From: Gemmatimonadota bacterium
Lineage (GTDB): Bacteria > Gemmatimonadota > Gemmatimonadetes > Gemmatimonadales > GWC2-71-9
Length of the DNA: 11,866 nucleotides
NCBI GenBank assembly: GCA_036679605.1
Contig: JAZDCZ010000401.1
Span: 1 to 11,866, forward strand
Direction: 5' to 3'
This document shows, piece after piece, positions 280 to 11,663 of this stretch. The stretch's first letter is position 1, and the number at the start of each line of letters is the position of its first letter. The position numbers were made by a program, and so were the translations under genes. Under the pieces are notes generated by a model. The model was given only the letters and a program-made list of their open reading frames with translations. It ran no database searches and had not been told where the DNA came from.

Positions 280-1407
280 GTGATGCGCCCGGTCGAAGAA
301 CAATTGCAGATCATCAAACGGGGCGCCGTCGAGCTTATCGACGAAGACGAACTCAGAGAAAAGTTAAAGGGTAACCGACGGCTGCGTGTAAAAGCCGGGT
401 TCGATCCGACCGCGGCCGATCTCCATTTAGGCCACACAGTCCTGATCGAGAAGCTTCGGCAGTTTCAAGAACTCGGTCACCAGATCATATTTTTGATCGG
501 TGATTTCACGGCGCGTATCGGAGACCCAACTGGCAGGTCCGATATCCGCCCGATGCTCAGCGACGAGGAAATCCGACACAACGCTGAGACCTACCAGGAG
601 CAGGCATTCAAGATCCTCGACCGAGAGGCAACCGAGATAGTGTGGAACGGGACGTGGTGCGAGCGTCTCGGTGCCGCCGGGCTGCTCCGGTTGGCGAGCG
701 AACACACCGTGGCGCAATTGCTCGAGCGCGACGACTTTCAGAAGCGATACAAGGGGCGACAACCGATTGGCCTGCATGAATTCCTCTATCCCGTATTGCA
801 GGGATACGATTCGGTCGAATTGAAGGCCGATGTCGAACTCGGCGGCACTGACCAGAAGTTCAATCTATTGATGGGCCGCGACGTGCAGAGGAACCGCGGA
901 CAGGCGCCGCAGGTGGTAGAAATGTACGGCAAGCTGATGTCGATTTCCGATGGACTTATGGTGCGCTACTACGAACTTCTGAGCTCGGCCAGCGAGGAAA
1001 GGTTGGAGGCCGTTCGCTCGAGCGTGGTGCATCCCATGGAAGCCAAAAAGGCTCTGGCGGCCGAGATCACCGGGCGGTTTCATGGAGCCGTGGCTGCGGC
1101 GGCCGCAGAGGCGGATTTCAGGCAACGCTTTCAGAGGCACGCGCTACCCGATGAGATTCCCGAGTTCCGTTGGCCGGGAACCGAAGCTTCCCTGTGGATC
1201 TGCCGGTTGTTGACCGAGACCGAGTTGGCCGGGGCTAAGCTTGCGAAATCCAATGGGGAGGCGCGGAGATTGATCGCCCAGGGCGGAGTCAAGGTCGACG
1301 GAGCCCGGGTGATCGACGCCGATGCCGAGGTCGAGGCGAAAGGGGCAGCGCTCGTGCAGGTGGGGAAGAGACGGCTCGTCCGCGTGATTTTTGCGGCCGG
1401 AGCCTGA
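280..1407 (+). CDS. tyrS: Tyrosyl-tRNA synthetase with C-terminal S4 domain; the KMSKS loop is missing in frame
   Basis: [15 protein letters not shown] (HIGH motif), [46 protein letters not shown], and S4-like [18 protein letters not shown]...VGKRR. Start is GTG 280 or ATG 283. PQVV joins EMYGKLMS directly, with no KMSKS. Confidence 0.95.
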
Positions 1408-1455: not shown

Positions 1456-1496
1456 GGCTGAGAATTAGCTCCGCTTGTGATCTGCCCGGAGCAGAG

Positions 1497-1525
1497 TTGA
1501 AATGTACACCGCATAGGTGTACGAC
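1497..1525 (+). promoter_or_regulatory. Sigma70-type promoter with an embedded palindromic operator (toxin-antitoxin autoregulation)
   Basis: TTGAAA (1497-1502), 17 bp, TACGAC (1520-1525). The perfect inverted repeat GTACACC-gcata-GGTGTAC (1504-1522) fills the spacer and overlaps the -10. It lies directly upstream of the toxin remnant and antitoxin. Confidence 0.7.
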
Positions 1526-1653
1526 TGAAGGGCCAGAGAAAAGGTCAACGGTCTATTCGGCTCAGTCGTACCTACCGAGCCATCTATGTCGTCAGGCGCG
1601 ACGGGGCACTGGAATTCGTAAGCGTCGAGGAGGTAAACAAGCATGAGTACTAG
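1525..1653 (+). pseudogene. HigB/RelE-family toxin, C-terminal 42 codons only (5' half deleted); not in the ORF track
   Basis: My translation: LKGQRKGQRSIRLSRTYRAIYVVRRDGALEFVSVEEVNKHEY*. This fits the RelE/HigB pattern LKGxRxGxxSIRLxxxYRxIY. In-frame TGA at 1498-1500 and no ATG/GTG after it. The stop overlaps the antitoxin start by 11 bp. Confidence 0.8.
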
Positions 1654-1966
1654 ATCCAACACGAGGACCAGGGACTCCAAGCGGTTCCTAGAAAAGTTGT
1701 CCGGAGGACCGCTCACGTTCGGCGGACTGCTCGCCGCGATCCGCGAGGCGGAGGGGGCAACCCAGGTGGATTTCGCCGCAACGCTCGGAATCTCTCCATC
1801 ACACATGTGCGACATTGAGAAGGGCCGTAAGGTCGTTGGTGCCGCACGCGCTGCACGCTTCGCAAAGATTCTCGGCTATTCGCCCGAGAGCTTCGTAGCG
1901 CTCGCTCTGCAGGGACAGGTCATTGAGGCGGGCCTCAAGCTCAACGTGAGCGTGGAAGCAGCGTAG
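1643..1966 (+). CDS. XRE/HTH_3 transcriptional regulator, HigA-like antitoxin
   Basis: IREAEGATQVDFAATLGISPSHMCDIEKGRK is an XRE helix-turn-helix. Strong SD GAGGAGGT at 1627-1634. The toxin-then-antitoxin order is that of higBA. Confidence 0.85.
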   Translation: MSTRSNTRTRDSKRFLEKLSGGPLTFGGLLAAIREAEGATQVDFAATLGISPSHMCDIEKGRKVVGAARAARFAKILGYSPESFVALALQGQVIEAGLKLNVSVEAA

Positions 1967-2019: not shown

Positions 2020-2104
2020 GCGACTAGGCTTTTCAAGTGGGCGTAGGGAAGTATCGAATGCGGTCGACCATATCGATTATGTTTACTGAGAGGCTGTGGT
2101 ACCG
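2020..2104 (+). repeat. ~85-bp direct repeat, copy 1, containing a degenerate dif-like site (2060-2087)
   Basis: Aligns by hand to 4789-4874 with 6 substitutions and one 1-bp gap. Core: GCGGTCGACCA-TATCGA-TTATGTTTACT. Confidence 0.9.
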
Positions 2105-2181
2105 GCCTTGGAGACTGACCCCCGCGCCCCTTTGGTTGCAATCTCCTTGTTTGGCGGCGCCCGTTGTGATTCTATCGGTTT

Positions 2182-3840
2182 ATGGACGGTTCGCGTCAGA
2201 GGCGTCTGCGTAGTTCAAACATTCTTTTCTCCGCGATCATGGCGGCGTTCACCCTAGCGACTGCTCTGGGCGGCGGCGCGTTGGCGTTTGCTCAGTCCTC
2301 GACCTGCCTGACGCAAAAGTCCCGCCACGTGAGAGCTGCGGCATCGCGGGCGTGCCGCGCCTATGTCACCGCGGCACGCCACGGTACGGCACCGGACCTT
2401 TCACGCATGGACCGCGTGCGCGTTGACACTGCCTGCCGTGTGGATGTTGTTGCGGTCTGCGCTGAGCTGGCGGGACTGTGTTACGGAGCGGCCTTCGATT
2501 CGGCGACGGCAACGTTTTTGAATCCGGTAGGCGATCGATGTGCACGCATTATCGGGACGAGCTGCAAGTCGGCTCTGAAAGCCGAGATGAAATCCCCGGG
2601 ACACGCCACGGCACGCCTGGCGCGAATTGCGCGTCGATGCAGTGGCCCGATCGACGGAGATCTCGGCGGCGCTTGTGCGACACAGACCGCCGTTGAGGGA
2701 GCTATCCAGTGTTTGGCCCCAGAAGTTGCGAGTCTTTCGAGACGCATCGTTACGCCTCCACCTATGTCGTCGAACGGCGAAACGTGGGTACGCCATCGCG
2801 GCGGGACGGTGTGCAAGGGGGCACTGGCCCAGCCCTTGCCGGGCACTGACGTTTGGGTATCTCCAAGCGGCGACGATACCAATCCCGGCACATCCGACGC
2901 ACCTTTGCGTACACTGGCCCGCGCGCTCTGTAACGCGATACCGGGTCAGACGATTCACGTGGGTTTGGGTACCTATGGCGAATCGGTACTGTTGTCGGAG
3001 TTCGGAGACCCGATGACGCCGATTCGGATCATCGGCGAGGTTGGACCTCAAGGCGAACTGCCGGTACTCGACGGCGGAGGCACCCTGACGATGGGCATCG
3101 CCATCATAGGTGAGGACATTACGCTAAAAAGCGCCGGCTTTGTCATCGAGGATATCGAGACGAAAAACTATACCGACGAGGGGATCCTGGCCGTCATTGC
3201 AGAGAATGTAACCGTGCGTGGCTGTCGCGTGCACGACAACGGTTTTCATTCCATCGACCCCGATGCGGACGGCGAAGGCTTCGGCGTGTCCTTGGTTGAC
3301 GTGACGGGTGCCCTGATCGAATCCGTCGAGGCCTATGCCAACGGGCCGGACATGGCTCGCCAGGGCCGCGGAATTTTGGGTACCGGCATCGATGTGTTCG
3401 GCTCCGACGACGTAACCGTGCGTGGCTGCGATCTGCACGACAATATCGGCGGGGGCCTACTCATAGAGGACTGCGCAAACGCCCTGGTCGAAAACAACAC
3501 GATCCGTGCTAACCATCTTGACGCTGCCGGTGACTACTGGGACGGCGGAATCTGGGTCGACGGTGGCCACGACGTAACTGTGCGTTCCAACACACTCAGC
3601 GGTAACCTCGGGCCGGCAATCGTGCTGAGCGACGAAGGAGTACAAAACCCCACGGGGTACGCGATTATCGACAACACGCTCGACGGCAACTTCTGGGCAA
3701 TTTACCTGTGGAACTTTGGCGTATGTCCCTGGCCGGCCCCGACTGTCGTAGCCCATTCGGGGAACGTGTTCACGAACAGTACGCGCAGCGATATCCTGTG
3801 TAATCCGTGGGAATGCGGTGTCGGTAAGCCCTGTGGCTGA
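2182..3840 (+). CDS. Secreted right-handed parallel beta-helix protein (pectin-lyase fold, DUF1565-like start) with a Cys-rich N-terminal domain
   Basis: Basic/hydrophobic signal peptide ending ALAFA|Q. About 140 aa with 10 Cys, then VWVSPSGDDTNPGTSDAPLRTLARA (from 2851). PbH1-like repeats follow (VTVRGCRVHDN, VTVRGCDLHDN, ALVENNTIRAN, VTVRSNTLSGN). Alternative ATG at 2239. Confidence 0.85.
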   Translation: MDGSRQRRLRSSNILFSAIMAAFTLATALGGGALAFAQSSTCLTQKSRHVRAAASRACRAYVTAARHGTAPDLSRMDRVRVDTACRVDVVAVCAELAGLCYGAAFDSATATFLNPVGDRCARIIGTSCKSALKAEMKSPGHATARLARIARRCSGPIDGDLGGACATQTAVEGAIQCLAPEVASLSRRIVTPPPMSSNGETWVRHRGGTVCKGALAQPLPGTDVWVSPSGDDTNPGTSDAPLRTLARALCNAIPGQTIHVGLGTYGESVLLSEFGDPMTPIRIIGEVGPQGELPVLDGGGTLTMGIAIIGEDITLKSAGFVIEDIETKNYTDEGILAVIAENVTVRGCRVHDNGFHSIDPDADGEGFGVSLVDVTGALIESVEAYANGPDMARQGRGILGTGIDVFGSDDVTVRGCDLHDNIGGGLLIEDCANALVENNTIRANHLDAAGDYWDGGIWVDGGHDVTVRSNTLSGNLGPAIVLSDEGVQNPTGYAIIDNTLDGNFWAIYLWNFGVCPWPAPTVVAHSGNVFTNSTRSDILCNPWECGVGKPCG

Positions 3841-4004
3841 AGGTCGCACCGATTTTGCGTTCGAGCGCGGCGCTCTTACACGCGATTTTGCCGCGACTGT
3901 TCGAGCCGACGGCTGCGGAGAACTCTTAGGCATTATTGACGCCGCTTTGAATCTAGATGTCCCCGGTGAGTAAGGTTTACTTTTTGAGCACGGGACCGAA
4001 GACG

Positions 4005-4146
4005 TATCGACGGCATGTGCGCACCCGCTGATCGGGTCACAACTATACCTGGTGCACGAGTCCCCGTCGTCGCAAGGAGGAGCGGGCGTTAGACAGGACC
4101 CTACGCCATTGCATGTCTCGCATTGGCTGCACGTGATCGACGACAT
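4005..4146 (-). pseudogene. Fragment of a Cys-rich repeat protein (Dictyostelium CTDC-like repeat)
   Basis: CSQCETCNGVGSCLTPAPPCDDGDSCTRYSCDPISGCAH resembles CDDGNxCTxDxCDPxxGCxH. There is no signal peptide, and the rest of ORF 3457..4161 is non-protein-like and runs antisense into the beta-helix gene. Boundaries are approximate. Confidence 0.5.
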
Positions 4147-4171
4147 CGGGTCTACCTTCAAAAGAAGGCAC

Positions 4172-4792
4172 TCACCCGGTGTGGGTGCGACGTACCTCTC
4201 GTTTCATATCTTCCCAGCCCTCGATGGCCCTACGGCACGACTGCGAGTTGATGCAGAGGTGCGACCAGATGGACAGTGACGGTGTCGCTATAAGCGGAAT
4301 CGCGCCGCGACTACGGCTTTTCTTGCAAACCCCGCAGGGGGCGACGATCAATACGACCGCGGAGTCAGGCTGGGCGGCCAAGCGGACCAATCCGTCCAAA
4401 TTGAAGAGCGTGACGGCAGTGTACTCCATGTCGGGATCGTTGATCGGGCCGTGCAAATCAAAGGGACGGGTTTGTACGTCGCCGGCCCAGTGTTGGCGGT
4501 TGAGTTCGGACATGCGGGTCTGCACGTTCGGGCTCGCGTCGATTTTTCTCAGTTCGTCATCTGAAGCGTCCCGGCGATCTCCGTAACCCAAGCCTTCGCG
4601 GATGAACCATTTGAGTTCATCGTGGAGGTCGGTGGAACTCGCCAGGCTGGTAACGACGATGTCGATCTCTTTCTTGTATTCGAGAGACTTACCGATCCCC
4701 GGCCATTCGCTGAGCTGGTCCGCTATTGTCGTCGGAACGAACGGGGGCACGGGGAGTCCTACGAATCCTACGTCGGGAAGATTCTCGAGCGA
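4172..4792 (-). pseudogene. 5'-truncated SorC/DeoR-type sugar-binding domain gene (C-terminal part)
   Basis: EIDIVVTSLAS, AGDVQTRPFDLHG, VVLIVAPCGVCKKSR and IWSHLCIN resemble the Sugar-bind (NagB-like) fold pattern. The frame extends upstream of 4750 (SLENLPDVGFVGLP) to a TAG at 4793-4795, which lies inside repeat copy 2. No HTH and no convincing start. Confidence 0.55.
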
Positions 4793-4874
4793 CTAGGCCT
4801 TTTAAGTGCGCGTAGGGAAGTGTCGAATGCGGTCGATAATATCGATTATGTTTACTGAGAGGCTGTCGGTACCG
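4789..4874 (+). repeat. ~85-bp direct repeat, copy 2, containing a dif-like site (4829-4856)
   Basis: Core GCGGTCGATAA-TATCGA-TTATGTTTACT has the 11-6-11 layout and ATAA-N6-TTATGT signature of E. coli dif (GGTGCGCATAA-TGTATA-TTATGTTAAAT). The right arm matches 9/11. The repeat itself is certain; the dif function is inferred. Confidence 0.9.
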
Positions 4875-4921
4875 ACGAAGAGAAGATTTGTCTTCGCCGA
4901 ACGTGGTTCATCAGTGCCCCC

Positions 4922-5404
4922 GTGCCCTGGCGGCTTTATCGCATCGAACGCGAGGCCAAGCGCGACGGCCTGCGCGGCGAGGAACTCGTGCGCCTGCGTG
5001 CGGGGGAACCCAAAGCGATGCTGGCGGTTTTGGGTGAGTATATCGAACGGCTTAGGCCGACGACGCTGCCGAAAAGCGGGCTCGGTACGGCGATTACGTA
5101 TGCCCGATCACAATGGCCGTCTATCACGCGCTACCTTGCGGTGCCCGAGGCCGAGCTGGACAACAACAGCTGCGAGAACGCGATCAGGCCGCTGGCTCTG
5201 GGCCGCAAGAATTGGCTGTTTGCCGGCAGCGAAGCCGGCGGACACCGAGCGGCAACGCTATTTTCCATCGTCATCACGTGCAAACGGCTCGGCATTGACC
5301 CGCAGGACTATCTCGCCGATATCCTGGCCCGTATTCCCACGCACAAGCTCTGACGCATCGAAGAGCTGACGCTGCGGGCCTGGCAGGCCGCACGCGAATC
5401 GTAA
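4922..5404 (+). pseudogene. IS66-family transposase (TnpC), C-terminal fragment with an internal stop
   Basis: LYRIERE, LPKSGLGTAITYARSQW, ELDNNSCENAIRPLALGRKNWLFAGSEAGG and TCKRLGIDPQDYLADILARI are diagnostic. After TGA 5351-5353 the frame continues RIEELTLRAW (cf. RIDELLPWNW) to TAA 5402-5404. The N-terminal part, tnpA and tnpB are absent. Confidence 0.95.
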
Positions 5405-5459
5405 ACCCTCTACTCTCTTGCGCCGACACGGTCGACTACGTTGTTCGTCGGACGGTTAC
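4922..5459 (+). mobile_element. IS66-family remnant: right end with terminal inverted repeat
   Basis: GTTCGTCGGACGGTTAC (5443-5459) reads GTAACCGTCCGACGAAC on the - strand, the GTAA-start end typical of IS66. It ends 55 bp after the tnpC stop. No left end seen. Confidence 0.85.
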
Positions 5460-5706
5460 GAAGAACAAGAAGCGTCGGGTGATCTACAAGGCCGAGGTGA
5501 CCCGGTTGGAAGCCCGCGAGCCGGATGGTCAGGTAGCCCTTTGGCCGATCGCTCGCCATTGCTACAGGTGTCTTCCAAATTCCGCTGCGCGTCAACCCAT
5601 TGCTAGGAGCTACCGGCATTGTCACAAGTTTGAAAACTTCTGTGCCCCCTCAAAACTCGATCGAGGTGAAATGTGTTGACTATACAATGTCGGCAGATGA
5701 TGCCGA

Positions 5707-6638: not shown

Positions 6639-8600
6639 TCACGGCTTGCAACTCACCCGTTTTCCGCTTCCGCCTTGCCTGCAGCGTGCGGCGGCAGTGA
6701 AACAGTCGTCGCCGATGTCGAGAACCGCTTCCAGGCCCGCCCCGGGGTCTTGAAGGCTCACGTCCCGGGCCTTGACACGCCACCGCTCTGTTCCGTCGTT
6801 GCGGACTTTAAGGCGGGCGCGCCTGATTCCTCCGGCGACCGCTCCGGTCGGATCGCGAAACGTGAAGCTCGTACCGGAAGGCCCCGCTCTAAAGGTACCC
6901 GCGGGAATCGTTGCGGTATAGACGGTGCCCGTCGCATCGGCCAGCACGACGCTGACGTCCTCGGACAAAGGGTCGAGTGCGCCATTCGCCGAGGCGGGGA
7001 GACTACCGCGAAGAAGCAAGGTGTCATCTGCGCCCCCGGGCCCACTGCTGAAAAACCCCAGACGGCCCCGCTTGAGTACCAGGTTCTGATCACGCCGGGT
7101 CGGGCAGAGATCGCAAAGATCACCGATCCCGTCGCCGTCGCTGTCGATCTGCTCGGGATCGGGAATGCCGGGGCAGGTGTCGGGGACAGATTTGAGGAAC
7201 TCCACCACATCGGCACGCTGTTCGTCCTTCCACTTGAGATCGAAAACAAACTCGTGACCCCGTACTCCACCTGGTTTGTCCGCCCCCGGTGGCGTGCCGG
7301 TGGCGATAAAACCTGGCTTCAGTCGGGCCTTGTCGAAAACTTCCTCGATCGTGGCGAGGGTTCCATCGTGAAAGTAGGGCGGCGTTGCCCACAGGTTGGC
7401 CAAGGGTGTGACACGGTAAAAGCCGGATGCGATGACACCCTTGGTCGTGAGATCGGGATCGGTGCCGATGACGCTGAGGGGAATCGGATCCAGGTTTGAG
7501 TAGCGACCCAGGTGTGGCGAATGGCAGTCGTCGCATCCCGAGTCGAAGAAAACGCGGCGTCCTCGCCGCGCAGCTATGGAATCCACGTTGGGGTTCTCGA
7601 TCAACTGGTCGAGCACGTAGCCGTACACCGCGAGCCCTTCCAGCTCCTCTGGCGTCGCCGGGCGTTGCGCCGCCTCGAGGTTCGCCGAGCCTGCATTGCG
7701 GGCGTCGATGCTTATCGCCAGTGCCGTAAACTCAAGGCGCGAGAATCCGGTTGTATAGAGGTGTGGTGGTATGTTGCTGGGATTGCAAGCGCTCCCCGTG
7801 ATGATCACCCCCACATCCAGCCGTCCCGGTCCCCAGTCCTGGAGACAATGCTTCTTGGCGGGGGAGAAGGATGGGGAGAACGCCAGCATGGCGCCCAGAT
7901 CGAGCTGGATATTGGGCAGCCCCTCGACCTCGGCGCCCGTCAGCGGATCGGTTCCCGTGTGACAGAAGACGCAGGTAGTTCCGTAACGAACGGTGCCCGT
8001 GCCGTCGAGCATCTTACGGATTCCGACCCAGCCACTGCTCAGGTTCCCGAGGGGGTCGAGCGTACCGGGTGTGTCTTCCGGTTCATCGGCGGGGATGAGC
8101 CCGAAGTTCTCCCCCTGGGCGAGGATAGTCTCCCACGGGATGCCCAACTGATCCGTCAGCACGACCTCGTTGCCAAAGGTCTCTTCCTCCCACCCCTCTT
8201 CCCCTAGTTCGATCGCATCGGCGAGCGCAACCCCGGTGACGGTGAAGGGAACTCCGTTGCTGTCTTCCCATTGGGTCAGCGTCAGGGTCTGGTCGCCGAA
8301 CGTGCGCAGCTTGGTGCTTTGCAGTGAGACCACCACTTTACCCGGGGTGGCTCGGGGAGGGACTTCAACGATGATCTGGCTGTCGGACCAAAGCTGGACG
8401 ACTTGAGCGTCGAGGAGATCGAAACTGACAGTACCGCCCCCCTGGACGGTTCCGAACCCGGCCCCCGTTATCGTCACCACCGTGTTCCAGGGCCCTGCCT
8501 GCGGGCTCACGTCGGTGATGTTCGGGCTGCATCTTGCCGGGGACGGGGCGAGCAAAAGAAAGCAAGGCAACAAGACGATCGCAACAATGGCCTTTTTCAC
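6639..8600 (-). CDS. Secreted multidomain di-haem c-type cytochrome: IPT/TIG + di-haem (CCP/MauG/RoxA-like) core + TSP3 Ca-binding repeat + C-terminal beta domain
   Basis: Signal peptide MKKAIVAIVLL. IPT motif PNITDVSPQAGPWNTVVTITGAGFG...WSDSQIIVEVP. CXXCH motifs CVFCH (7959-7973) and CDDCH (7521-7535). LWATPPYFHDGTLATIEEV and GHEF. DTCPGIPDPEQIDSDGDGIGDLCD (~7101-7181). SD GGAG before GTG. Confidence 0.85.
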   Translation of the reverse strand: MKKAIVAIVLLPCFLLLAPSPARCSPNITDVSPQAGPWNTVVTITGAGFGTVQGGGTVSFDLLDAQVVQLWSDSQIIVEVPPRATPGKVVVSLQSTKLRTFGDQTLTLTQWEDSNGVPFTVTGVALADAIELGEEGWEEETFGNEVVLTDQLGIPWETILAQGENFGLIPADEPEDTPGTLDPLGNLSSGWVGIRKMLDGTGTVRYGTTCVFCHTGTDPLTGAEVEGLPNIQLDLGAMLAFSPSFSPAKKHCLQDWGPGRLDVGVIITGSACNPSNIPPHLYTTGFSRLEFTALAISIDARNAGSANLEAAQRPATPEELEGLAVYGYVLDQLIENPNVDSIAARRGRRVFFDSGCDDCHSPHLGRYSNLDPIPLSVIGTDPDLTTKGVIASGFYRVTPLANLWATPPYFHDGTLATIEEVFDKARLKPGFIATGTPPGADKPGGVRGHEFVFDLKWKDEQRADVVEFLKSVPDTCPGIPDPEQIDSDGDGIGDLCDLCPTRRDQNLVLKRGRLGFFSSGPGGADDTLLLRGSLPASANGALDPLSEDVSVVLADATGTVYTATIPAGTFRAGPSGTSFTFRDPTGAVAGGIRRARLKVRNDGTERWRVKARDVSLQDPGAGLEAVLDIGDDCFTAAARCRQGGSGKRVSCKP

Positions 8601-8666: not shown

Positions 8667-8972
8667 CGATCATTCCTGCAACACCATGTGGAGAACTCCC
8701 CGAGGAGAAGCTGCCGACAGGCGCGGCTCTTGACCGGCGTGGTTATGGGCGACGACACGGGCCGGTCGGGTTTTCGCCCATCATTCTCCCTCTGCCGAGG
8801 GACCGACGAGCGGGCCATGACGGACAGAGGGTTGCCGTGTTGCATCCGAACAAACTGAGTCGCGAAGACTCCCATGCCGGCCCGATCTGTACCTGCTTGC
8901 TCCTTTAGTATCTTGAGAGGTCGAGGCCGAAGGTACAGGGCCCTATTGTACTCCAGTTCGCAGAGGGTAAAT

Positions 8973-11663
8973 GTGACAACTGATATGAGACGAACGTACG
9001 AAAGCTGTTCTGGCGCGCTCACTGCCTGCGCCGTTGTTGCGTTGACTTGCCTCGCTCCCGCGAGCGCATTTGCGCTGGAGACGATCTCGGGGATCATTCG
9101 TTCCGCGACTACCGGCGCACCGCTGCAGGGGATCGATCTTGATGTGTTTGACGCCTCGACCGGTAGAACGGTCGCTATAACCGGTGACACGACCGGCGCG
9201 GCCGGAAACTACACGGTGACGCTGCCCGGACCCGGATCCTACGTAATCCGCACCGATCCGACCGCCGCACAAGGAGTTGCCAGCCAGTACTACAACGGCG
9301 TCTTTCTGAAGAGTCAGGCCCAACCCATCGTAGCCGCTATCGGCTCGGCGACCATGGGAGTCGATTTCTCGCTCCCTGCCGGGGTCATCTTGAGCGGAAC
9401 GGTTACCTCCGGGGGACTAGGTATCGCGGGCGTCGACATCGACGTATTCGCGGACAACGGTGAGTTCCTGGGCGCGTATAACGCGAAAACCGCGGCCGAT
9501 GGCAGCTACGCGGTCGGCGCACTACCGCCGGGCAACTACGTCGTACGCGCCGACCCCGATATCGCGCTGAATACTCAACTATTCACCCGTACCTATTTCG
9601 CAGGTTCGGCAGACCTCCTGGGAGCAACTCTGATACCCGTAGGAACGACCGATGTCAGCGGAATCGACATGGCGTTGACGCCCGGTGGAACGATCAAAGG
9701 AGTCGTGACCGCCGCCGCAAGCGGGCTTCCGTTGGCCAACATAGACCTGGACCTTTTCGATCTCACGGGCAAACGAATCAACGTACAGGCCAAGAGCGAC
9801 CTCATTGGTCTGTACGAGATCGGCGCCGTTCCAAGCGGCAGCTATCTCCTTCGGGTGGATCCGAGCCTTGCGCAAGGCTACGCACGCACGTACTACGTCT
9901 CGTCTGCCGCCGAAAGCAGTGCAGCACCGATCGCTGTGGTGGCAGGATCCCGCACAGGCAATGTCGACTTCGCAATCGCAGATGGCGGCACGCTCAGTGG
10001 CACTATCCGAGCGTCGGGTATCGGAACGCCTTTAGCGAATATCGACCTCGACCTCTTTGATTCGTTCGGCAGCTTCCTCGCGACCTACACCGCAAAGACC
10101 GACGTGGCGGGTAATTACCAGATGGGCCCGTTGGCGCCGGGGACTTATTTCATACGAGCGGATCCGACTGTCGCCCAGGGTTATGCCGACCAGTTCTGGC
10201 CCGCCGCAGTCGATCTAGTGTTCGCCAGCGCCGTCACCATCAGCGTCGGCGCCGATACCGCGTTGATTGATTTCGACCTCGTCTCCGGGAGCGCGGTCAC
10301 AGGCACCGTGCGTGATATTGGCGGGATGGCGCTGTCCGGAATCGACCTGGATCTATTCGATGCTGCCACCGGCAGTCGACTTCGCCAGGGATCCACCAGT
10401 ACCGTCGATGGTACCTATCGCTTCGATTCACTCGCGCCGGGCGGATATCTGGTCCGAGCTGACCCCACGGGTATCCAGGGATTCGCCCGCCAGTACTTCA
10501 ACGGTCAGTTGGCCAAGGCGGTTGCCGATGTCGTTGTGACAGGAGCCGGCGCGGCGACTACCGGCGTCGATTTCGCACTTGACCTAGCCGGAACCTTATC
10601 CGGGCAGGTCCTCGATGCAGGCGGGGTGCCCGTGGCCGGTATGGATATGGACGTATTTAACGGACAGGGTCTAGGCGCCATTCGAATGGACCAGCCGGCG
10701 GTCACCGACGTAACGGGCAACTACTTATTCGAAGCTCTACCGCCGGGAAACTACATCGTGCGCGCAGATCCCGATCCGGCGGTGTCGCTACCAGTGTATC
10801 ACCCGGCAACAACCGATCCCGCACTGGCCACGCTCATCCCGCTGGCACCCGGGCAGGCCGCCGTAGGCAAGAACGTCACGCTTGGCACAACGCTTTCTTC
10901 CGCTCAGAGCACCGCCCAACAGTCATGCCTCACCGCGTTACACAAGGACCTCGCCAGGGTCGACAAGACCCAGGGACGCGAGATTCTACGCTGTATCAAA
11001 AAGAAGGCCGGCGGCAAACTGAGCGGTACGGTGGAGAATTGCATCATCCAAGACGCCAAAGGCAAGCTCGCCAAAGCTGCGTCAAGAACGGTATCTGACT
11101 TCAACAGACGTTGTGTGGCTCAATTGCCCACGATTGGAGCGACGGATCCGCAAGTCGTCAACGATGTCGGGCGGCAAGAAGAGACGAACGTCGCACACCG
11201 GATGTTTGGCGTCGATCTGGACGTCGGGATCGTTACCTCTGCCAACGGCGCCACCCGTTCCGTCTCTAGTTGTCAGCTCGCGCTGTCCAAGCAAGCGGCA
11301 AAGTGCAGTCTGACCAGGATTAGTGGGTTCTCACGTTGCCTAAAAAACGGACTAAAGAGCGCTGCGGTCGTGTCCGCCGGCACACTGTCGAGCTGCCTGG
11401 ACCAAGATCCGGCCGGACGGATAGCCAAGGCCTGCGGCCCGGTCGCCGGCAAGCTCGGGCGCATAATAGGAAGCCGCTGCAACCTTGCACCTGCAGAACT
11501 TTCCGCAGCCCTTCCCGGCTGCGCAGGAGCTACCGCTGGTGTAGCTGAGTGCGTCGACGGCATACTCGCATGCAGCGTATGCACCGGCCTCAACACCGCC
11601 GACGCCCTCGGCCGTGACTGCGACCTTTACGACGACGGCACGGCTAACTCGAGCTGCCAGTAG
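8973..11663 (+). CDS. Large secreted protein: six ~100-aa carboxypeptidase-regulatory-like (prealbumin/Cna-B-type) beta-sandwich repeats plus a Cys-rich helical C-terminal domain
   Basis: Signal peptide ending APASAFA|L. The repeat consensus GxxxGxV..GxPLxxIDLDxFD..T..GxY...LxPGxYxxRxDP..QGxAxxY..DFxL occurs six times. The last ~250 aa contain 16 Cys. Start is probably GTG 8973 (SD GAGGG 8963-8967) or ATG 8985 rather than 8874. Confidence 0.85.
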   Translation: MTTDMRRTYESCSGALTACAVVALTCLAPASAFALETISGIIRSATTGAPLQGIDLDVFDASTGRTVAITGDTTGAAGNYTVTLPGPGSYVIRTDPTAAQGVASQYYNGVFLKSQAQPIVAAIGSATMGVDFSLPAGVILSGTVTSGGLGIAGVDIDVFADNGEFLGAYNAKTAADGSYAVGALPPGNYVVRADPDIALNTQLFTRTYFAGSADLLGATLIPVGTTDVSGIDMALTPGGTIKGVVTAAASGLPLANIDLDLFDLTGKRINVQAKSDLIGLYEIGAVPSGSYLLRVDPSLAQGYARTYYVSSAAESSAAPIAVVAGSRTGNVDFAIADGGTLSGTIRASGIGTPLANIDLDLFDSFGSFLATYTAKTDVAGNYQMGPLAPGTYFIRADPTVAQGYADQFWPAAVDLVFASAVTISVGADTALIDFDLVSGSAVTGTVRDIGGMALSGIDLDLFDAATGSRLRQGSTSTVDGTYRFDSLAPGGYLVRADPTGIQGFARQYFNGQLAKAVADVVVTGAGAATTGVDFALDLAGTLSGQVLDAGGVPVAGMDMDVFNGQGLGAIRMDQPAVTDVTGNYLFEALPPGNYIVRADPDPAVSLPVYHPATTDPALATLIPLAPGQAAVGKNVTLGTTLSSAQSTAQQSCLTALHKDLARVDKTQGREILRCIKKKAGGKLSGTVENCIIQDAKGKLAKAASRTVSDFNRRCVAQLPTIGATDPQVVNDVGRQEETNVAHRMFGVDLDVGIVTSANGATRSVSSCQLALSKQAAKCSLTRISGFSRCLKNGLKSAAVVSAGTLSSCLDQDPAGRIAKACGPVAGKLGRIIGSRCNLAPAELSAALPGCAGATAGVAECVDGILACSVCTGLNTADALGRDCDLYDDGTANSSCQ
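9081..10885 (+). repeat. Six tandem ~300-bp diverged coding repeats
   Basis: Motifs IDLDVFD, VDIDVFA, IDLDLFD (x3) and MDMDVFN, each followed by RxDP, recur about every 100 aa. Confidence 0.85.

Follow-up and report, generated by a model that had tools for sequence, protein, structure and literature searches.

Two short direct repeats in contig JAZDCZ010000401.1 are quite probably orphan oriIS ends, 85 and 140 bp long, of an IS91/ISCR-type insertion sequence (IS) whose transposase is gone, with a mimic of the host dif site built into them. The contig (C337 of bin G000, filed as a Gemmatimonadota genome) was analysed over its full 11,866 nt, here called the window. An original prediction, drawn from the letters of the window, had taken the repeats and the DNA between them for a stand-alone cassette mobilised by host XerCD and stabilised by decay of one XerC arm. 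Our preference for orphan ends rests on homology to transposase-linked ends, on an end motif at the outer edges of both repeats, on a fixed distance of 40 bp between that edge and the dif-like core, and on the genes that are cut at the repeat boundaries. The locus itself would be a decayed IS scar that encloses a single accessory gene; its interest lies in what appears to be a class-wide host-dif mimic, held at a fixed place in the ends of rolling-circle IS.

The repeat pair and its homology to IS91/ISCR ends

The repeats (2020-2104 and 4789-4874) are in direct orientation at a spacing of 2769 bp and align over 86 bp with 91.9% identity; the alignment scores 121 bits, whereas none of 20 shuffled windows exceeded 31.9 bits. 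They differ, just as had been predicted, by six substitutions (repeat positions 11, 15, 21, 34, 49 and 50) and one gap. The predicted length of about 85 bp is correct for the pairwise repeat and too short for copy 2, in which homology with other genomes reaches position 4928, for a total of 140 bp. Each copy contains a core of 11-6-11 layout, GCGGTCGACCA TATCGA TTATGTTTACT in copy 1 and GCGGTCGATAA TATCGA TTATGTTTACT in copy 2 (Table 1). The two cores lie 2769 bp apart and, as originally described, have the same spacer and right arm, all six substitutions falling to the left of the spacer.

Among 401 genomes of the Binatia, the class to which we attribute the contig (see below), the repeat has three matches at E<=0.01, one of them strong. 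This homologue, in genome G175, is 78% identical over 96 bp (E=8.6e-13), with homology continuing to window position 4928 and so covering the same 140-bp span, and it is found downstream of a Y2 transposase gene at a distance of 122-261 bp, i.e. at the position of oriIS, with its end at +261. The transposase matches PF04986 (E=1.7e-17) and the ISCR clade Ia model (E=7.9e-41), scoring far below the cut-off of the clade model because the protein is a fragment, and its C-terminal part is 35-39% identical to ISCR1/ISVsa3. A second G175 transposase, outside the training set, has a 3' flank that matches the repeat profile (E=2.6e-5); a second direct copy of the repeat, without the core, lies in the same genome 1.8 kb from the first, and a further copy was found on a metagenome contig. 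We built an end motif from four annotated ISCR ends and refined it on the DNA downstream of transposase genes, with the window and G175 left out. Among 23,690 positions it places 4789-4810 of the window at rank 1 and 2020-2041 at rank 3, and it stops exactly at the left edges of the repeats. Four copies in two genomes have a common outer edge and four different flanks, and the ends have (T/C)CGC in common, which may be either element or target bases. The original prediction had held that its cassette would fall if the repeat were an IS end, and the repeat does match IS91/ISCR-type oriIS ends.

The genes on either side of copy 2 point the same way. Its outer edge, 40 bp from the core, cuts a gene at residue 189 of the predicted product: the product of the open reading frame at 4172..4788 aligns at 73% identity with residues 189-386 of P0001, a protein of 391 aa, the match starting at 4789, and the 5' half of the gene was not found in the assembly. 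Its inner edge, 72 bp from the core, adjoins an IS66 tnpC gene that is cut mid-gene. The truncated copies in the window, G175 and G191 share their break base, which in intact copies falls 138-141 bp from the end, and CGCC precedes this inner break in all three. The gene-breaking junctions therefore track IS boundaries and not the 6-bp spacer. As copy 2 has parts of different genes on its two sides, its flanks would have been joined by later recombination, deletion or capture. In G191, the locus L247 (G191:C31:1-420) consists of two IS ends back to back with their origins outward, in the manner of a miniature inverted-repeat transposable element, and one of its pieces begins at the inner break of window copy 2.

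We propose that an HUH transposase inserted short right-end pieces at different places, by one-ended transposition as in IS801, and that later recombination or deletion between such pieces would have brought unrelated flanks together, so that two of the pieces now enclose 2.7 kb of Binatia-like DNA. The 8% divergence of the two ends argues against a fresh target duplication. IS91-family elements are described as starting at oriIS, for which the terminal 82 bp of the IS91 right end suffice (PMC13181058), and the oriIS region of ISCR1 is given as 232 bp (PMC6218425). ISCR1 and ISCR2/ISVsa3, members of the IS91 family, resemble the elements studied here in their transposase (35-39% identity to the linked one), in an end motif about 230-260 bp past the stop codon and in a similar TT..A...CCTA end, and they differ in that the end motif of the window is divergent, its transposase absent and its dif mimic without a detected counterpart in the four annotated plasmid ISCR ends. 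The account of IS801 in PMC3189936 describes short right-end fragments, shed by the element and moved in trans, for which its authors propose a main role as recombination homology; like the ends in the window these are short, come from the right end and have defined inner break points, and unlike them they measure 229-679 bp rather than 85 and 140 bp, the dif mimic being a feature of the window ends. Two direct oriIS ends flanking a gene also occur in the ISCR28 sandwich around armA or sul4 (Yuan 2024, as cited in PMC12772301); in the window, in contrast, neither end adjoins a transposase gene, no resistance gene is present and no sign of movement was seen.

The dif mimic and the host of the contig

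The contig is, in our reading of its composition and homology, Candidatus Binatia DNA within a mixed bin. The bin measures 6.7 Mb, against 2.0-4.4 Mb in 40 relatives, and holds two genes for tyrosyl-tRNA synthetase (TyrRS); C337, the whole of which is the window, lies outside the large contigs in tetranucleotide space, and its TyrRS is 64-78% identical to that of a Binatia-class genome, against 35% for the bin's same-genus relative. The 51 contigs of the bin above 30 kb sum to 4.5 Mb and are accompanied by many small contigs rich in mobile elements. A canonical dif of the bin's main organism is found at G000:C133:40505-40532, at a sign change of GC skew and 15 kb from xerD; as C337 is attributed to the Binatia by its TyrRS, this site belongs to another organism and was rejected for comparison. 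No match to the repeat under E=0.1 was found in the 40 relatives of the bin.

A dif pattern is present, mostly once, in 185 of 301 Binatia genomes, and XerD-like genes were found in all four of the genomes tested for them. The chromosomal site of G041 and G175 reads ACGTCCGATAA GATATA TTATGTCAACT. The comparison with host dif suggested by the original prediction gives a divided answer: the arms of core 2 agree at 8/11 and 9/11 positions and those of core 1 at 6/11 and 9/11, whereas the spacer of either core agrees at only 3/6. On a Binatia dif matrix core 2 scores 15.5 bits, a value reached by 1/400 background windows, and core 1 scores 4.3 bits, within the range of shuffles, whereas the 19 chromosomal sites that make up the matrix score 33.6-39.4 bits. 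The claimed dif likeness is thus non-random for copy 2. That copy 2 could be the organism's own chromosomal dif, with copy 1 a partial duplicate, is scarcely tenable on these scores. The cumulative GC skew of the window does peak near 5000-5200 and the organism's own dif is missing from the bin; however, copy 2 lies inside an IS end, and G175 and G261 have canonical dif sites of their own elsewhere, that of G175 on a different contig from the repeat homologue. As a separate observation, L163 (G223:C2:1-20000), on a 20.7-kb contig, carries four identical dif-like sites, each exactly 4906 bp apart; it has no IS end motif nearby and probably represents a small plasmid that assembly has turned into a concatemer.

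The mimic recurs in transposase-linked ends of the class. We examined 34 transposase loci, of which three were too short and seven lacked an end motif. In 19 of the 24 ends kept, a dif-like site of at least 4 bits lies within 200 bp inside the end, compared with 0/22 outside the end, 0/24 in-gene and 13/400 background windows. In a separate test, 16/27 downstream regions beat all 60 of their shuffles, as did 0/4 annotated plasmid ISCR ends. Seven ends carry the mimic in the same orientation as the window, at a distance of 38-42 bp from the end (40 for both window cores), and other ends carry it in the opposite orientation at 25-37 bp. Mimic spacers are 6 or 7 bp long and variable, and one arm is usually poor. 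The Binatia dif arm ACGTCCGATAA is found unchanged as the left arm in L184, L188 and L202. In G261 the ends form a dispersed family; two direct pairs enclose 3.9 and 4.8 kb, and one copy continues into a fragment of a transposase. Thirteen G261 matches to one end (L225-L237) mostly carry near-consensus dif mimics with differing spacers, and four of the thirteen stop 0-6 bp past the XerD-side arm. We conclude from these counts that the predicted dif mimic in Binatia oriIS ends is not a chance resemblance. Our literature search, outside which most subscription journals lay, found no paper linking IS91/ISCR ends to dif or Xer, with Xer appearing only as a tree outgroup.

The left arm of core 1 bears on the supposed stabilisation of the pair. 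Its GACCA variant is also found in two transposase-linked ends of G127, L220 and L221, so that this arm gives no evidence of post-integration decay, and the idea that one XerC arm had decayed to fix the unit in place is not borne out. A consistent polarity of weak and strong cores was not found across the pairs.

We suggest that the mimic binds host XerC/XerD, and that recruitment of XerCD would most likely serve to resolve multimers or cointegrates between element copies with a common spacer. Use of the mimic for integration at chromosomal dif is unlikely, because of the spacer mismatch and because the end motif (at least 10 bits) was found within 90 bp of a chromosomal-type dif at only 1/32 loci. 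It is also conceivable that the dif likeness has no Xer function, the core being a promoter, a transposase-binding site or the site of an element-encoded tyrosine recombinase, and the pair an IS scar only. This alternative agrees with the preferred explanation on the identity of the IS ends and differs from it only on the role of the mimic. The flank right of the core is conserved as much as the core among near homologues, 0/4 enterobacterial ISCR ends show a mimic above shuffles, pairs of an integrase with IS91 are present in the assembly, and outward promoters are described for ISCR1 in the corresponding region (PMC6218425). We give it very little chance even so, as the dif-identical left arms named above, and the presence of mimics in both orientations and at varied distances from the end, would be hard to explain without selection for Xer binding.

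Several points count against orphan ends with a built-in mimic. The window edges are not in the top 10 with the unrefined ISCR-only seed matrix, the end motif being divergent. The end matrix was trained on the same loci at which ends were called, with 10/34 dropped (the dif matrix is independent), and the elements are related, so that the mimic counts are not independent events. Strong DNA homology was found once only among the 401 Binatia genomes; the assembly yielded no complete partner transposase, only a 26-aa fragment on contig C271, and C337 carries no transposase gene and no identified terIS. One contig, finally, gives neither the order of events nor the recombinase.

Possible routes of mobility for the 2769-bp unit

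In principle, as judged from its sequence, the 2769-bp unit could be excised by a transposase acting from oriIS to oriIS, by RecA or by XerCD, the last being conceivable because the spacers are identical. A stand-alone dif-bounded cassette moved by host XerCD alone, in the manner of integrative mobile elements exploiting Xer (IMEXs) or of pdif modules, and fixed by decay of the XerC arm, would account for the direct orientation, the 11-6-11 cores, the identical spacer, the one weaker arm and a contig without a recombinase; 0/35 of the assembly's PF00589 matches are on C337, in agreement with the earlier statement that the window encodes none. Such a cassette would need a 28-bp site, however, and the homology extends over 86-140 bp; the breaks fall at IS boundaries, the site is not the chromosomal dif and matches its spacer at 3/6, the supposedly decayed GACCA arm sits in transposase-linked ends, and a broken gene accounts for half of what the repeats enclose besides the beta-helix gene. 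The cassette appears to be largely refuted by the IS-end homology already, and we consider it very improbable, the cores lying inside IS91/ISCR-type oriIS ends and genes breaking at the IS boundaries.

Acinetobacter pdif modules share only the 28-bp site, usually as inverted sites on plasmids, and accessory genes and higBA-type pairs adjoin their dif-like sites. The window is like them in its accessory gene and higBA-type pair and unlike them in its direct IS ends of 86-140 bp. The IMEXs described in PMC5357621 (the gonococcal genetic island, TLC and VGJ phages) likewise have 28-bp dif-like sites with one good and one poorer arm and encode no recombinase; their integration is at chromosomal dif, which their central region largely matches, whereas the site here is inside an IS end and agrees in spacer at 3/6. 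By its sequence the pair is classed with IS91/ISCR oriIS ends, and departs from IMEXs and dif modules in location, spacer and junctions. Paired dif-like sites met in genome scans call for caution, as they can turn out to be IS91-type ends and not IMEX or pdif modules.

A hybrid of the two systems would let a transposase acting in trans form circles of oriIS with captured genes, which host XerCD would integrate or excise at the mimics in other element ends, making the 2769-bp unit an integrated circle. The layout of the window is what such an integration would leave, and it is equally explained by independent insertion of the two ends. Identical spacers and right arms, with all six substitutions left of the spacer (P about 0.08), would fit a hybrid, as would the comparable direct pairs in G175 (around 1.8 kb) and G261 (around 3.9 and 4.8 kb), the arms kept while spacers vary among the G261 copies, and the XerD-like genes in the four Binatia genomes tested; at that P value the skewed substitution pattern was rejected as a sign of crossover. 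Against it stand the differing order of long and short copies between genomes, the G175 copy wholly without a core, and the frequency of 7-bp spacers or one poor arm among the mimics. In the contigs of run X1, probably the source sample, one contig spans 1937-4871 with zero differences at a depth of 15.2, against 14.8 in the right flank, and no circle or empty-site joint is among the joints listed, which is weak evidence as these are assembled contigs of a single run with rare forms dropped. On balance such a capture route is unlikely. As a related precedent, PMC9376610 describes a CR2-sul2 unit that is mobilised by the GIsul2 integrase.

The broader proposal, that a branch of IS91/ISCR elements has co-opted XerCD so that circles of captured genes integrate and excise at the mimics and form integron-like arrays that lack their own integrase, the 2769-bp unit being one cassette, seems to us doubtful. 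If XerCD does act on the mimics, there would be a link between HUH transposition and Xer recombination, which are treated as separate systems; rolling-circle multimers would become resolvable, and scattered orphan ends would be points of site-specific recombination.

Bracketed genes and flanks

The features of the window that bear on the repeat pair are collected in Table 1. G+C content of the bracketed DNA equals that of the flanks. Partial homologues of the beta-helix protein were found in 4/251 Binatia genomes (E<=1e-25) and full-length ones in none; its N-terminal domain is of Binatia type and has no significant similarity to the C-terminal domain of a 929-aa protein encoded farther along the window. 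Homology of the IS66 remnant with contig C220 stops at 5461, and a loose end lies at 5460.

Table 1. Coordinates of the repeat copies, their cores and neighbouring genes in the window
Feature	Position	Strand	Remarks
Probable orphan oriIS-side end, copy 1, 85 bp	2020..2104	-	Element end 2020, toward higA/tyrS; homologous to G175 transposase-linked end
dif-like core 1, GACCA-variant left arm	2060..2087	+	40 bp inside element end
Probable orphan oriIS-side end, copy 2, 140 bp	4789..4928	-	Element end 4789, toward bracketed DNA
dif-like core 2, 11-6-11	4829..4856	+	40 bp inside element end
552-aa predicted secreted protein, Cys-rich N-terminal domain and right-handed beta-helix, intact gene	2182..3840	+	PF13229 E=1e-26, DUF1565
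3' half of gene for 391-aa protein, no assigned family	4172..4788	-	Cut exactly at copy 2 outer edge
IS66 remnant, 3' third of tnpC and right end	4929..5459	+	PF03050, PF13817, NF033517; mid-gene cut at copy 2 inner edge
higBA-like toxin-antitoxin pair, toxin gene internally deleted, just outside copy 1	1486..1966	+	Helix-turn-helix (HTH) antitoxin; weak RelE-type match

No terminal inverted repeats were seen at the ends among the 25 longest listed, and the flanks are unrelated. Stable hairpins in the ends did not exceed shuffles (folding z-scores -0.8, +1.1 and +0.3), and a search for RNA families gave a single match, at E=0.92 and outside the repeat. A weak sigma-70-like promoter, starting in copy 1 and directed outward, is predicted at 2036-2007 (-), antisense to higA (1 found, 0.1 expected). 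The exact core pattern had no match in genome, viral and metagenome contigs, a later pattern scan of metagenomes giving one, and blastn of the repeat against plasmids and phages gave no match.

Further traces of related elements occur in the bin. A more divergent orphan end is found at G000:C206:397-517 (E=5e-4), and the 26-aa fragment, of a G175-type transposase, lies at C271:3924-4001. Three IS91 transposases, on contigs C399, C152 and C338, each adjoin a tyrosine recombinase, and contigs C340, C271 and C381 carry three recombinases in a row, which we take to be recombinase-in-trio (RIT)-like.

Outside the repeats, the higBA-like pair is 97% identical to an intact copy at G000:C196:9310-9944, relative to which the toxin gene of the window lacks about 160 bp. 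In tyrS (window 280-1407) about 25-30 residues are absent near 915-925, a stretch that presumably includes the KMSKS loop; the alignment with G041 is interrupted at residues 207-216, and extra letters are present there in other run X1 contigs, so that the gap may be either an assembly slip or a real deletion. The remaining genes, outside the finding, encode a predicted secreted protein with IPT/TIG and cytochrome c domains (6639-8600) and the 929-aa protein, which has carboxypeptidase-regulatory-like repeats (8874-11663).

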